From a virus (taxonomy: Duplodnaviria > Caudoviricetes): DNA of 60,347 nt. Under the pieces are notes generated by a model. That model saw only the letters and a program-made list of their open reading frames with translations. It was not told the origin of the DNA and searched no databases. Numbering within the stretch: the stretch's first letter is position 1; each line of letters opens with the position of its first letter. Below, in pieces: positions 27,421 through 41,926 of the stretch. Position numbers and translations under genes: made by a program. The stretch lies in IMG/VR virus record IMGVR_UViG_3300046777_000773, positions 1-60,347 of that record; one strand, written 5' to 3'.

Positions 27421-27607
27421 TCCTAGCTTTGCCCGCAGGCTGTGTGATGTTGGTACGGATTACCCAGATATTGGTTCCGTTTGACGGGTCGATGGCCTTC
27501 TCTAGCCAAACCTTTACGATGTAGCCACGCTTACGCCACCAGTTACGGATGTCAGCCATGAGCTTGTAGTTAGCTGCACGGTCACTCAGGTAGTCATGCT
27601 TTGCCAT
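27401..27607 (-). CDS. Hypothetical protein
   Basis: Overlapping operon context; IRNWWRKRGY..VW...IRTN. Confidence 0.6.
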   Translation of the reverse strand: MAKHDYLSDRAANYKLMADIRNWWRKRGYIVKVWLEKAIDPSNGTNIWVIRTNITQPAGKARSGYCVD

Positions 27608-29015
27608 TCGGTCTCCACTTCTTCAGGCCACCTTCGCCCTTGCCCCAATTATACCCGACTTCTACGTCGAAAGGAATAATTATTTCACGGGTCACGCCCT
27701 TGATATCAGTCACCGGGAACGGAAACGTCAGGCACTCCAGTACCTGCGGCAGAAGCTCGGCAGCCTTCTCGATCTTCACTTGGCCTAGCACAGCATCGTG
27801 AAGGTTCAGCAGGATCTGGACGTCGCCTTTGCCTTCGAAACGTTCCCAGATATTGTAGATGCCGATGTTCATGAGGACACCGACGCAGTGCTGTGGCACA
27901 AAGGCAATAGCTTCGCGGAGCGTGGCGTCGTCCCAACGGCGGGACCAGAAGGTGCGGCGGATGCCGAAGGGCGTGACCAGATAGCCTTTGGTTTGGAGTT
28001 GATTGGCGACCCATGCGTGCCAGTCGCTGATGCCGGGGAACCGCTTAAAGTACTGGGCTTGGAAAGCTTCAGCAACGGCGGTCTCGACCTTCATCTGCTG
28101 TGCCAGGGTGAACGGTTTTCCATAATAGTTACTGCCATGGGCGCCCCTCTTCGTAATGTCACGATACGAATAACCACGGTAGTATTCGCGTTCAGCAAGC
28201 TCGCGTTCGGGCGGGAAACCAAAGACCATGGAAGCAACCATTGTGTGGGAGTCTCCACCTTCCACTGCGGCGATATAATTTTCATCACCCGAAAGATACG
28301 CAACAATACGAGCTTCCGCCCCTTGTTGATCCGAATAGAAAAGTAGGTATCCGGGATCGGCAACGAAACAGGTGCGCGCTTCCTTTGGTATGTTCTGAAG
28401 GTTACTCCCAATGCGGAAAGGATGTTCACTAGACGATAGTCTGAACGTCTCAGTCCCTGCAATATTAAACGCCGCATGGAAACGGTTACTCGGCGAAAGC
28501 TTCTTGGAGAGGAACTCAATTTGCTTTTCGAGATCGCGGATGCGGAGGATGTGGTTGGCGAAGAAGGCACCGCGCGGGTATTCGCGGGCGATGCGTTCAA
28601 GGATTTCGCGGTCGGTGCCAACTTTGGTTTCTCCTTTCTTGGACTTGGTCTGCTCAGGAATGGCGAGCATTTCGTAGAACAAAACCATAAGCTGGGGTGT
28701 AGAGTTGTGGTTGACGGTCGTGCCCCACAGCTTCTCGCAGACGTAGTCGAAGTTCGCTTGCACCTTATCAGCACGGGCGCGCAAGCCAGCAACCAAGGTG
28801 TCGCGCCGGGCCGTGTCGATCTGGACGCCGCGCCGCATCATGGTCATGATCGGACCCAGCATCAGTTCGCTGTAGCCATAGGTGACCTTGGCCCAGTCAG
28901 GCAGCAGACCCTCATCGTAGATTTCTTTGAGGGCCATCGTCTGCATGGTGTCGAGCGAGTTGTAGATGATCTCCTGATTCTCAGGAGTTGGGGTCAAATC
29001 CGTCAAGATCCGCAT
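27594..29015 (-). CDS. polA: Family A DNA polymerase, catalytic subunit (with ExoIII motif)
   Basis: YNSLD; GTETFRLSS; NLQNIP; motif A SDQQGAEAR; motif B RDITKRGAHGSNYYG; motif C LHDA. Confidence 0.9.
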   Translation of the reverse strand: MRILTDLTPTPENQEIIYNSLDTMQTMALKEIYDEGLLPDWAKVTYGYSELMLGPIMTMMRRGVQIDTARRDTLVAGLRARADKVQANFDYVCEKLWGTTVNHNSTPQLMVLFYEMLAIPEQTKSKKGETKVGTDREILERIAREYPRGAFFANHILRIRDLEKQIEFLSKKLSPSNRFHAAFNIAGTETFRLSSSEHPFRIGSNLQNIPKEARTCFVADPGYLLFYSDQQGAEARIVAYLSGDENYIAAVEGGDSHTMVASMVFGFPPERELAEREYYRGYSYRDITKRGAHGSNYYGKPFTLAQQMKVETAVAEAFQAQYFKRFPGISDWHAWVANQLQTKGYLVTPFGIRRTFWSRRWDDATLREAIAFVPQHCVGVLMNIGIYNIWERFEGKGDVQILLNLHDAVLGQVKIEKAAELLPQVLECLTFPFPVTDIKGVTREIIIPFDVEVGYNWGKGEGGLKKWRPNGKA

Positions 29016-29307
29016 GCGTATCTCCTTTGAGGAACGTGTTCCGCATACGCGATAAGATGTGGAGTGTCAAGGGAGGGCCGTCATATGATTTGGCAAAACG
29101 CCGAACACGCGACGGGTCTAGGTCAGCAGCCAGACATACCTCGTCGAAGTTCTGGGCGGTGGTACCGAACTCTGCGGTAAGCCATGCGTGAGCCTGCCGC
29201 TTATTGACGTGGGCTGCTGGTGTCTTAGGCTCAGAGGTGGCGTCTATGAGTGCTTGGATAATTACGCTTGCCCATAGACGCCGTACTGCTGCATCATCAT
29301 CATTCAT
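28981..29307 (-). CDS. Conserved hypothetical protein between polymerase halves
   Basis: LWASVIIQALIDA...AHAWL...FDEVCLAADLDP. Confidence 0.65.
   Translation of the reverse strand: MNDDDAAVRRLWASVIIQALIDATSEPKTPAAHVNKRQAHAWLTAEFGTTAQNFDEVCLAADLDPSRVRRFAKSYDGPPLTLHILSRMRNTFLKGDTHADLDGFDPNS
29042..29070 (-). promoter_or_regulatory. Promoter for polymerase subunit, inside the upstream CDS
   Basis: TTGACA-N17-TATGCG. Confidence 0.5.
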
Positions 29308-29339
29308 ACTGTAGGAACTTGTAGATAACTACCGACACT

Positions 29340-30284
29340 TTAGTCAATTGAACCTGCCTTATTAAAGTCCTTCTTGGCCTTGGTCCGAAGATGCTTCCAT
29401 GCGCGAGTCGGAATGTGTAGCGAAGCCAGGAAGCCCAGCGACTTTTCCCATTCGGGTTGCCACGCATGGTGCCGAAGCATCGTATCGAATATGTGGCCTT
29501 TGGGTCTTATGCCATAAGCGTTAAGGTATGTCAAGTCATATGTTGCATTATGGAAACCCCATGCGAGGTCGGTGCGCTGGGCCAGGAACCAAAGCCACAT
29601 CCAGATGTCACGCTCATCTTGCTCGGACCAGATGTGCTGGAAGGCGCGGTCCTCCAAGTGTACGTAGAGGCAACGATCTGAAGAGGTAGCCAGCGAGAAC
29701 TCCGTAATGCGGCAGGACTTATTTGTTTCGACGTCGAACACAATCTCGTTGCCGATGTAGCGGGTCGAGAACTCATAGAGGTCAGCGACCGTGTCGGGCA
29801 GGTGGATGGTGCGAGGCCGGTCCTTGTAGCGCGTCTGGACTTTACGCATTGCCGAAGCCACGACGGGACGCTCGGCCCATGCCATGCGCGCATAGATGGT
29901 AGGCGAGTAGGTGGGCACCACTTGCAGGCCGGGCACGAAGGGACTGTCGACGTGGGTGCCGCGATAGGTGTCCAGCTTCACCTCACCCGTCAGGCAGTAC
30001 ATAGCGTGGGCGCCCATGGTCAGGGCCATGTCGTAGCCTTCGAGACTTTTGTGTAGGGCTTCGCGGTCAGCGCGGGCAAGTGCAGTCAAGTCGCCACCTA
30101 CCTTGCCGCCTACGAAAAGCGTGGGCCACTTCGCAGTGTAGGCACGGTGCGCCGTGAAGATGGAGTGGGGCCGAAGCCCCGAGACTTGCATCAACTCCTG
30201 CGTGACCTTCCATTCCCACTCAGAGAGCGGACCGCCCTGCGCGGCGTCGACGGAAGGCCAATCAATTACTAGGGCGATCTTCAA
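29340..30284 (-). CDS. DNA polymerase N-terminal subunit: degenerate UDG-like domain + 3'-5' exonuclease (ExoI/II)
   Basis: MGAHAM..LTG....YRG...VVPTYSP (UDG fold); VFDVET; FHNATYDL; DTML.HH..QPE..KSLGFLAS. Confidence 0.8.
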   Translation of the reverse strand: MKIALVIDWPSVDAAQGGPLSEWEWKVTQELMQVSGLRPHSIFTAHRAYTAKWPTLFVGGKVGGDLTALARADREALHKSLEGYDMALTMGAHAMYCLTGEVKLDTYRGTHVDSPFVPGLQVVPTYSPTIYARMAWAERPVVASAMRKVQTRYKDRPRTIHLPDTVADLYEFSTRYIGNEIVFDVETNKSCRITEFSLATSSDRCLYVHLEDRAFQHIWSEQDERDIWMWLWFLAQRTDLAWGFHNATYDLTYLNAYGIRPKGHIFDTMLRHHAWQPEWEKSLGFLASLHIPTRAWKHLRTKAKKDFNKAGSID

Positions 30285-36663: not shown

Positions 36664-36774
36664 TCAGGCGTTGATAGCGTCGACGACAATGAGCGTCATC
36701 GAAACCCACAGCAGCAGGTTCAGGGAAATGAGGGTGGCCAGGATTGCCTTTTCCATGATAGGGTTTTCGAACAT
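36664..36774 (-). CDS. Small single-TM peptide
   Basis: AAGGAG RBS; hydrophobic core. Confidence 0.45.
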   Translation of the reverse strand: MFENPIMEKAILATLISLNLLLWVSMTLIVVDAINA

Positions 36775-36941
36775 TAGATGATCTCCTTGCTTGCGCCGCT
36801 TGATTGCGACAACACCTACATAGCCCAGTCGCAAGAGGATTGAAAGATAATTTTGGTTAAGCATCACATTTCAAATAGTTACAGGTTGCAATTAAAGCTA
36901 CCTCTCAGGATCAAGGTGGTGCGCGGGAGCGCCCAAGGGGG

Positions 36942-37029: not shown

Positions 37030-37256
37030 AGACCCTCACCAGACCCTCACCAGAGACTTTCCTTATGGCATCAGCAACAAATGCAAAAGGTGAGAAAGTG
37101 AGAGTGGTGAGGGACCATCTTCCCCTATTGAAAAGAGATATATAATATATAAAAGAACCCGAAACGGCGCTCACCATTCTCACCTGGGTGGATTCTCCTT
37201 ACATATCAATGACTTGCCCGGTGATGGTTTACAAACGACACTCACCAACCCTCACG
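37030..37256. repeat. Iteron-like element 1 (putative origin)
   Basis: CTCAC x2, GTGAG x3, TATATAATATATAAAAGA core, CTCACC x2, TCAATGACTT, CTCAC x2. Confidence 0.65.
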
Positions 37257-40028: not shown

Positions 40029-40229
40029 TCACCCTAGGCTATCCGCCCACTCCTGAAGCCGATCCCGCTCCTCCGGCGCTGGCAACTCAGGCAACTCGCT
40101 TTGACCCTTAATGCCCAGGCGCCCCTCGACCACCTTCAGACGCACCTTCAGATCCCAGACCATCCGGTGTAAGTCCATCGCCACATTCAATGCGACCATC
40201 TGCCTAACCTCTTCTTTACCTACTGGCAT
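40029..40229 (-). CDS. Hypothetical protein, probably leaderless
   Basis: TTGACG-N17-TACAGG (40263-40235), 5 nt to ATG. Confidence 0.5.
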   Translation of the reverse strand: MPVGKEEVRQMVALNVAMDLHRMVWDLKVRLKVVEGRLGIKGQSELPELPAPEERDRLQEWADSLG

Positions 40230-40295
40230 ACTTCCCTGTACCATGGCCGGACCCGCACGTCAACCCCGGGCTAGATACTTTACAAAAGTAAAGCA

Positions 40296-40570
40296 TTCAC
40301 CTATACCCGGCGCTGGTGAGTTTCCATTTGTAAAGTTCACCAGATTCTCACCACTAAAAGCTCAATGTTTTCAAGCGGATAGCTCAAAAGTGAGAATGGT
40401 GAGCGTGGTGAGGGTACCCTTTCTATAAGAAAAGAAGGTATATAATATATATAAAAGAGGTCGAAAACACGCTCACCTCTCTCACCTCTCACTTGCCCAA
40501 TGATTTCAATGACTTAGCTGGCGCCCGTTGGTGAGGGCCTCTTGGGGACTTCTCACCTCTCACCTCACTT
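40296..40570. repeat. Iteron-like element 2 (putative origin)
   Basis: Same order as element 1: (T/C)TCACC x2, GTGAG x3, TATATAATATATATAAAAGA, CTCAC x3, TCAATGACTT, GGTGAGGG, CTCAC x3. Confidence 0.65.
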
Positions 40571-40705
40571 GCCCGATGCGCGCACTTTTGGCAGGGTAGA
40601 CTTCTGTATAGCACAAGTCAAGCTGAAAATCAAGCCCTCGTTTCCCGACGGGTCCCGCGCAGACGCGCCCTTGACATTGCCGGGCAGCGATGCTATATTC
40701 CCCTT

Positions 40706-40936
40706 GCTGGTCCGGTCTCGTCCAAGCACACGGGGTGACTGGTCCGGCACAAACTCTTGGTTACGATTGGGAAGGGAACCTTTCGTCGCGGCGCCGCAGC
40801 CAAGGGGGACTACCTAAGAAGGACACTAAGTCCTCGTTCGACTACAAACTAGAATGTCATTGTACGCCTACATTGTTCCTTGCTCCTAGCCCCCAGGGTC
40901 CCTGCTCGCGACAGGACAAACCCTGGGGGTTCTTTA
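40706..40936 (+). ncRNA. Candidate structured ncRNA (~230 nt)
   Basis: TTGACA-N17-TATATT (40671-40699); several stems; terminator CCCCCAGGG...CCCTGGGGG-TTCTTT. Confidence 0.55.
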
Positions 40937-40992
40937 TTGACAGGCCCCGTGCCTTTTGGTACAAAGGCCATCCACACGCAAGGAGCAAACCC

Positions 40993-41190
40993 GTGGACAA
41001 AACCTATGATCGCTTCGACTTCGAGCAATCCATCATGCAGTGTTGGGGCGTAGTCGACGACCTCAAAGCTTTCCACAAAGCCAACGCCCCTCTCGACACC
41101 TACGAGGCTCTGGCCAAAGTCTACCAACAACATTTTGAACACCTCTGGGCTATCTTCGAATACCTTCTTGAAGAGGGCAAGTTGGTATGA
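40993..41190 (+). CDS. Conserved hypothetical protein
   Basis: TTGACA-N17-TACAAA promoter; AAGGAG RBS; DRFDFEQSIMQCW.VVDDL. Confidence 0.7.
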   Translation: MDKTYDRFDFEQSIMQCWGVVDDLKAFHKANAPLDTYEALAKVYQQHFEHLWAIFEYLLEEGKLV

Positions 41191-41396
41191 GCGATTCCAT
41201 GGAACTGACCCATCAGGACCTCGTCGAAGCCTTTGACCGGGTTATACAGCAACTCAAGGTCATCGACAGCTCCAAAATCTTCACGACCCTTAACGTGGGC
41301 ATGTTCGACATCGAAGACGCCGTCCGGGTCCTAACCGGCTTCAAAGGCAAACTCATCGTCGACGCCCATACGAAAGGTATCCTCGAATGGAAGTAA
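41187..41396 (+). CDS. Hypothetical protein
   Basis: ATGA coupling. Confidence 0.6.
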   Translation: MSDSMELTHQDLVEAFDRVIQQLKVIDSSKIFTTLNVGMFDIEDAVRVLTGFKGKLIVDAHTKGILEWK

Positions 41397-41479: not shown

Positions 41480-41926
41480 ATGATCTGTAAAGGTTGTCTG
41501 CAAGACAAACACGAAGAATCTTTTGTTTTGCGTAAGGATAGGTCAGGGCGGCGCCGTCCATATTGCAATGACTGCCGCAATAACGTAGAACGCGCCCGAT
41601 ACGAGAACCATAGACGGCTACAACCTTTTAAATTGCGTTGTAGTCGGGCACGGGCTAGGGCTAAGTTTTTAAAGGTTCCCTTTGACTTAACCCCGGCGTA
41701 TTTGGAAAGTATTTGGACAGGGCAGTGTCCTGTATTAAAGTGCCCAATCCATTGGAGTACTGACCGTAAAAATGAGTACGCGGCAGAGCTTGATAGGCAC
41801 GTTCCTAGCTTAGGATATGTTAAAGGTAACGTAACCTTTTTAGCTAGAAAGGCTAATAGACTGAAGAACAATTCTACTGTAGAAGAACTGACCAACCTTC
41901 TGGAATGGATGAAACAATGGAAGTAG
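41480..41926 (+). mobile_element. Free-standing His-Me finger/HNH-like homing endonuclease gene
   Basis: CxxC..CxxC; CPVL; LDR...LGYVKGNV....KAN.LK; AT-rich. Confidence 0.8.

Follow-up and report, generated by a model that had tools for sequence, protein, structure and literature searches.

A probable promoter-to-terminator small-RNA gene, optional among relatives, in the control region of uncultured freshwater phages

The DNA analyzed here, a linear IMG/VR virus record of 60,347 nt (IMGVR_UViG_3300046777_000773, rated 73% complete and hereafter called the window), carries in its 1.7-kb divergent control region, immediately to the right of an origin-like element, a unit that is very probably a genuine standalone RNA gene, because its promoter is unique in the window, its terminator is strong, 307 nt of it are identical in a metagenomic relative, its first hairpin is unchanged at 45 of 45 positions in a second relative, contigs from RNA libraries match it and a coding function is excluded. 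From the promoter and the terminator we infer where the RNA begins and ends (Table 1), and we tentatively prefer, at rather less than even confidence, a mechanism in which the RNA would pair with the ribosome-binding site of the gene that follows, in the manner of the c4 RNA of phage P1.

Table 1. Features of the small-RNA unit and of the start of the rightward operon (positions in the window)
Feature	Position	Strand	Description
Promoter P1	40671-40699	+	TTGACA (40671-40676), 17-nt spacer, extended -10 TGcTATATT (40691-40699)
Predicted RNA	40706-40936	+	231 nt; predicted start 7 nt after the -10, predicted end in the terminator U-tract
Stem 1	40706-40748	+	16-bp hairpin with G-U pairs and one U-U mismatch; loop AAGCACAC
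Hairpin 2	40754-40806	+	Branched, optional; in the minimum-energy fold
Weakly structured middle	40807-40872	+	Includes a small AGGAC/GUCCU hairpin
CU-rich stretch UUGUUCCUUGCUCCUAGC	40873-40890	+	Complementary to the ribosome-binding site 40978-40988
Intrinsic terminator	40890-40938	+	Hairpin 40890-40929, then UUCUUUAUU
Promoter P2	40937-40965	+	TTGACA-N17-TACAAA, TGg before the -10; serves the next operon
Proposed target ribosome-binding site GCAAGGAGCAA	40978-40988	+	Before GTG 40993
65-aa gene	GTG 40993 to 41190	+	First gene of the rightward operon; proposed target

The minus strand between about 19.3 and 39.2 kb carries replication genes (a DNA polymerase in two ORFs, an exonuclease and a Sak4-like protein), and the plus strand from position 40,993 carries two small genes, an endonuclease VII-like gene, thymidylate synthase and ribonucleotide reductase, followed by tail-fibre-like proteins, the terminase and the portal. 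The polymerase is split into two minus-strand ORFs within 27594-30284, about 320 nt apart, of which 27594-29015 covers profile positions 808-1235 and 29340-30284 covers positions 565-779. The phage looks like an uncultured, freshwater, podovirus-like virus with a lytic appearance; its nearest isolates by large terminase are Pelagibacter phages of the HTVC023P type, at only 37% identity. The 65-aa protein is conserved across six aligned sequences and matched no PHROG, Pfam or PADLOC family, and the stop codon of its gene overlaps the ATG (41187) of the next, 69-aa gene. The two small downstream proteins had no PADLOC match of note, and the neighbouring genes gave no convincing defence-related match.

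The preliminary description of this DNA had proposed a near-consensus promoter, a strong terminator and a new promoter for the next gene directly behind it, and all three were recovered. P1 (TTGACA-N17-TATATT) matches the sigma-70 consensus at 11 of 12 positions with a TG preceding the -10, and the 60,347 nt of the window contain a single instance of TTGACA-N14-TGnTAnnnT, against 0.01 expected. The terminator arms (40890-40899 and 40920-40929, 10 nt each) are 100% complementary and followed by TTCTTTATT, and the corresponding 53-nt piece has a predicted folding energy of -27.7 kcal/mol (z -3.57), equalled by 1 of 200 shuffles. In the IMG/VR relative L102 the hexamers of P1 (-35 and -10) and of P2 are each identical at 6 of 6 positions, the spacers at 12 of 17 and 15 of 17, respectively, and the terminator at 44 of 47; in the metagenome contig L016 both P1 hexamers are kept with a diverged spacer, and the P2 hexamers are kept too. 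Hexamers retained while spacers vary in both relatives are the pattern expected of working promoters. P2 aligns with the sole promoter of a third relative, L008. Just upstream of P1, a small hairpin sequence (40641-40670; GGGTCCC..GCAGACGCGCCC) is similar to the terminator region 40890-40936 upstream of P2, which hints that the RNA unit arose by duplication of a promoter region; it also resembles a GGGTCCCTGCC stretch in L008.

Relatives of the unit were rare in the collections searched. Among GenBank phages, neither blastn with 40300-41200 nor tblastn with the 65-aa protein returned a match, five viral-contig loci encoding relatives of this protein (41-43% identity) had no DNA in common with the RNA, and exact RNA patterns had no match in viral contigs or genome contigs. 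Matches of 20-mers in two Mycobacterium-type genome-contig records shared only 21 nt and were taken as chance, and a further one in locus L098 extended over 20 nt only. A metagenome scan with the 65-aa protein alignment matched 357 stretches, of which 124 encode a relative and 80 were kept; by nhmmer, the RNA was present in one of 94 fetched loci with the 65-aa family, namely L016. L102 was found by a gapped stem-1 pattern, four of whose five matches were unrelated coding repeats, and L008 through a neighbouring 226-aa gene.

L016 is 100% identical to the window over 307 nt (40691-40997, plus strand), a block whose left end is the extended -10 of P1 and which reaches two bases beyond the start codon, while its flanks are identical at 254 of 413 columns on the left (61.5%) and 137 of 190 on the right (72%). 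Recombination surely contributed to this identity, since it also covers positions of the P2 spacer that vary in other relatives. L102, which is 68-82% identical to the window over 12 kb, carries P1, stem 1, a 38-nt linker, the terminator, P2 and the gene, and would encode a 131-nt short form (fold z -2.85; 2 of 200 shuffles as good) without hairpin 2 and with most of the middle part 40807-40872 missing. Stem 1 is identical there at 45 of 45 positions, loop included, and lies within the longest identical run between the two records (48 nt, 40703-40750, among 6405 aligned positions); the next-longest, of 41 nt, is inside ribonucleotide reductase. L008 shares the origin-like element and the small genes with the window, and a stretch of 476 nt in the window is matched by 274 nt in L008, where a single TTGACA-N17-TATATA promoter lies directly before the ribosome-binding site and GTG; by this alignment L008 lacks the RNA unit. 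The parts common to the long and short forms are stem 1, the CU-rich stretch before the terminator and the terminator itself, and stem 1 is the only module that stays unchanged, loop included, across the long, middle and short forms. Judged by these comparisons, the RNA body is the most conserved stretch of the region, and the unit is an optional, moron-like module that is long, middle or short in some relatives and absent in one.

Phage morons are promoter-to-terminator units found in one phage and absent from its relatives. The unit described here resembles them as a self-contained insertion between two conserved features that occurs in the window, L016 and L102 and not in L008, and it differs in that its cargo is a non-coding RNA instead of a protein gene and the phage is not known as temperate. 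The abstract of PMC7067206 uses the term moron.

Other parts of the region vary as well. The origin-like element (40330-40620) consists of inverted GTGAG.../CTCAC... arrays (40390-40407 versus 40468-40485) that enclose an AT-rich core, together with CTCACCTCT repeats; a second, partial copy, 77% identical, lies at 37086-37185, and L007 and L008 also have two copies. A 32-nt box between this element and P1 (40579-40610) is identical in L016, where it forms the second-longest identical run of the alignment, and partly kept in L008 and L102. The segment 40012-40316, with a 71-codon minus-strand ORF (40029-40244) that belongs to no family, is missing in L016, in which the flanks join directly, and is another control-region indel. 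An endonuclease VII/HNH-like gene at 41480-41926 (phrog_3322, 1.5e-28) is absent from L008, where thymidylate synthase directly follows the small genes, and from the aligned L102 record, and looks like a mobile insertion.

Parts of 40660-41000 were present in 20 of the 24 listed sequencing runs, which come from 15 studies and are mostly of freshwater origin; five of these 20 runs contain half or more of the words sampled, and another count, of RNA libraries, gives six, in which the shares are small. Four runs (two DNA, two RNA) were aligned on 40400-41250, with a bias in placement because the runs were found using this stretch. In the two DNA runs the flanks were covered as well, and in one of them (X3) record 9 joins the long-form RNA to L102-like upstream sequence and record 13 has a form skipping 40603-41029, as in L008. 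In both RNA runs, from two studies, the contigs (five in X15, one in X17) were confined to 40706-40884, off the 680 nt of flanking sequence, which speaks to presence in RNA libraries and not to strand, ends or level. Their alignments begin at 40706, 40714 and 40715 and end at or before 40884, with adapter letters after 40856 and 40884; the CU-rich end and the terminator are uncovered, and this gap (40885-40936) may stem from assembly and gives no evidence on the 3' end. In one RNA contig 40754-40823 is replaced by eight letters (joint 40753 to 40824), which yields a middle form without hairpin 2; the middle part 40807-40872 is represented among the RNA contigs. Record 1 of X15 has adapter letters and then, directly before 40706, 23 letters whose likeness is to stem 1 (its 3' arm and loop) and not to P1; they could represent a tandem hairpin of another variant or a cDNA artefact.

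The interval had been said to hold only an 11-codon ORF, a statement that proved partly right: this ORF exists at 40854-40889 (MSLYAYIVPCS), and from the ATG at 40690 a frame of 166 codons also extends across the entire interval to 41190, in the reading frame of GTG 40993. That ATG sits in the spacer of P1, upstream of the predicted RNA start, and the long frame matched no PHROG family. Relatives in the sequencing runs break it by 1-nt insertions near 40787 and by the 70-to-8 replacement (net -62 nt), and the counterpart frame in L102 has 77 codons and is out of frame with the gene, so that the interval is considered non-coding. In one run the 11-codon ORF loses its stop (40889 G>T) and takes a non-synonymous change (40867 C>A).

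Structure prediction gave a mixed picture. Stem 1 folds at -23.1 kcal/mol with z -2.73 and none of 200 shuffles as good, and its reverse strand has z +0.90; hairpin 2 reaches a z of only -1.46, the piece 40807-40888 one of +0.23 and the 179-nt piece 40706-40884 one of -0.27, and the fold of the whole 231-nt RNA does not exceed chance (z -1.48; equalled by 16 of 200 shuffles). Under this folding model, above-chance structure appears limited to stem 1 and the terminator. All three stems named in the preliminary description can form; GCUGGUCCGGUC/GACUGGUCCGGC and CUCUUGGUU/AGCCAAGGG are part of the minimum-energy fold, which in place of the third, GGACU/AGUCC, uses AGGAC/GUCCU. No compensatory base-pair change was seen among the sequences compared, which are too alike. 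Among the variant sites listed in the RNA, five of six fall where the fold leaves the base unpaired, which holds for 40% of all positions. The RNA holds no tandem repeat (40706-40936), and no paralogue of it was found elsewhere in the 60-kb window.

The preliminary description could assign the RNA to no known family, and this held in a covariance-model search. None of the 4227 families of Rfam 15 reached its gathering threshold on the whole window, and at E<=10 the seven weak matches on 40300-41100 left the RNA body free; on 40700-40940 one match remained at that cutoff, NsiR1, which covers the terminator hairpin only and scores 11.7 bits against a threshold of 39. Together with the conserved body, the kept promoter hexamers, the broken ORF and the RNA-library contigs, this supports a standalone RNA that belongs to no described family. 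Word searches of the literature, as distinct from sequence searches, found no description of this RNA; PMC10690425 reports 10,006 candidate RNAs.

Several specific likenesses were considered and set aside. The first letters of the RNA, GCUGGUCCG, with GACUGG on the other arm, recall what we take to be the Ro-binding helix of Y RNA or YrlA; there was no Rfam match to these RNAs even at E<=10, the 5' end pairs locally within 45 nt and not with the 3' end, and TROVE had no match in the window (controls positive in 2 of 14 genomes). For a type III toxin-antitoxin system with a ToxI-like RNA, there is no tandem repeat in the RNA, the downstream proteins lack a notable PADLOC match, and the 65-aa family is present in 94 fetched loci and the RNA in one of them (L016). 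A packaging RNA of the phi29 type, whose model we count as part of the Rfam library searched, gave no Rfam match of any kind, and the nearest isolates by terminase are the distant HTVC023P-type phages mentioned above; nothing here resembles a packaging RNA, and the packaging role once suggested gains no specific support. A CsrA-type sponge was likewise set aside, the GGA motifs not being kept in the short form.

According to the mechanism that we tentatively prefer, transcription from the strong host-type promoter P1 would yield a non-coding RNA of about 231 nt ending at the intrinsic terminator, and P2 would then start the rightward operon. The CU-rich stretch just before the terminator may pair with the ribosome-binding site of the first gene of this operon, acting in trans on P2 transcripts or in cis on transcripts that read through from P1. 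Such pairing would restrain translation of the 65-aa gene and, given the overlap of its stop with the start of the 69-aa gene, the block could spread to the latter; the invariant 5' hairpin would provide stability or bind a protein. The kept parts (stem 1, the CU-rich stretch and the terminator) correspond, by analogy, to the layout of a base-pairing small RNA.

In the window, the CU-rich stretch can form 11 bp, including one G-U, with its own ribosome-binding site, a value reached by 2 of 2000 shuffles, and the counterpart in L102 forms 10 Watson-Crick pairs with its own site, which none of 2000 shuffles reach; the two pairings use different registers, and the sequences being homologous, they are not independent tests. 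The stretch is unpaired with a probability of only 0.3-0.5 in the predicted ensemble. In a genome-wide duplex scan the proposed site was not near the top, and in a test of full-length duplexes the window showed no significance, 412 of 500 shuffled targets doing as well, and L102 a weak signal (24 of 500); beside the stretch of 10-11 bp, these duplex tests gave no second conserved contact between the RNA and its target. The motif GCAAGGAG was not enriched (3 found against 2.28 expected), and neither was CTGGTCCGG (17 against 17.4). One of the three copies of GCAAGGAG is the ribosome-binding site of the leftward gene that starts at 36774, whose ATG is preceded (36772-36790, minus strand) by AAGCAAGGAG, the same extended ribosome-binding motif as in the 65-aa gene; on motif identity, this gene could be a second target.

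The c4 RNA acts by two-seed pairing around a ribosome-binding site and is processed by RNase P from an operon transcript. In PMC8198154 the operon order in P1 is c4-icd-ant, with a C4 binding site before icd, and PMC2864571 describes the c4 antisense RNA as RF01695, occurring in Proteobacteria and phages. Like c4 of P1 and P7, the RNA proposed here lies directly upstream, on the same strand, of the gene whose ribosome-binding region it would mask, with effects passed on to a downstream gene. Unlike c4, it has no match to the RF01695 model, it is equipped with a promoter and a terminator and would not be excised from an operon transcript, it measures 131-231 nt compared with less than 100 nt, and the phage looks lytic and podovirus-like, not P1-like. 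As to seeds, one complementary stretch was found, in the window and in L102.

The same features may be read as those of a protein-binding decoy or sponge in which the invariant stem 1 would be the working part and capture a protein of the host or of a defence system, with a secondary place for the variable middle modules and the CU-rich stretch. We consider this explanation unlikely and still worth weighing; an anti-defence decoy was among the earlier suggestions and gains no specific support. The constancy of stem 1 in all three forms, its place within the longest identical run of the region and its strong strand specificity speak for such a binder, a very strong P1 fits a stoichiometric binder, and the RNA contig with letters before 40706 hints at a second, stem-1-like copy upstream. 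Against this stand the lack of a known partner protein and of a TROVE/Rsr gene in the window, neighbouring genes with no convincing defence-related match, no matches to protein-binding RNAs in Rfam, and GGA motifs that are not kept in the short form. An extension of this explanation, which we rate as improbable, would see the invariant 45-nt hairpin as the working end of a new modular class of phage RNAs that titrates or redirects a host RNA-binding or defence protein, produced in bulk from a consensus promoter, widespread in freshwater phages and tuned by swappable middle modules. For such a class, the tandem-hairpin hint, with a read start inside the loop, would indicate processing of a repeat array.

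In phage lambda, the arrangement pR'-6S RNA-tR' places a strong constitutive promoter and a terminated transcript of about 200 nt at the head of the late operon. The present unit shares the strong host-type promoter, the terminated transcript of about this length and the position at the head of a long one-directional operon running into structural genes, and in transcripts that read through the terminator the ribosome-binding site could be masked by the CU-rich element; P1 might be the real operon promoter, and the 231 nt with the terminator a cis-acting attenuator or antitermination leader of which the short RNA is a terminated by-product. We regard this as decidedly unlikely. Here, unlike in lambda, a second promoter lies behind the terminator, its hexamers kept in L016 and L102, and the leader is absent in L008, which drives the same gene from one promoter. 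Moreover, no upstream complement of a terminator arm is kept in the short form, no riboswitch family matches, and neither of two Q-type antiterminator families (PF03589 and PF06530) was found in this record rated 73% complete.

It is very unlikely that the unit is a functionless mosaic block, made of a promoter duplication and filler and conserved through recent recombination only. The 100% identity with L016, which includes the variable P2 spacer positions, the resemblance between the sequence before P1 (GGGTCCC...) and the terminator region, which hints at duplication, and the dispensability of the unit in L008 would all fit. Recombination of this kind would not readily account for stem 1 being unchanged also in L102, elsewhere 68-82% identical, for the listed changes falling mostly at unpaired positions, or for parts of the stretch being present in most of the listed runs and in 15 studies.

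A replication-related role, with transcription from P1 activating the neighbouring origin-like element or the RNA priming it, was suggested earlier and appears highly improbable. The unit lies about 130-350 nt from the iteron-like CTCACC/GGTGAG arrays that flank the AT-rich core, which is what this role has in its favour. Specific support did not emerge: transcription is directed away from the AT-rich core, L008 has the origin-like element and no RNA, the second copy at 37086-37185 has no such unit beside it, and activation by transcription alone needs no invariant RNA sequence. Finally, a protein product, either the 166-codon frame as an N-terminal extension of the 65-aa protein or the 11-codon peptide, is hardly credible, since the frame that stays open for 101 codons upstream of GTG 40993 starts inside P1, matches no PHROG family and is interrupted or shifted in relatives, and the short ORF is not maintained.

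To our knowledge, a role has been assigned to few small RNAs from lytic or environmental phages, and to hardly any from uncultured freshwater phages. In the RNA described here the structure of the gene is clear, its modules can be mapped from the long, middle and short forms that occur in nature, and several studies have RNA libraries with traces of it. Besides, thanks to its consensus sigma-70 promoter and plain terminator, no knowledge of the host is needed to examine the proposed masking in a laboratory strain. Altogether, the unit is in all likelihood a genuine small-RNA gene that runs from promoter to terminator and is optional among these uncultured freshwater phages, with a putative function suggested by the predicted pairing with the first gene of the rightward operon; should the invariant hairpin bind a host factor instead, a new route of phage takeover or anti-defence would be indicated.
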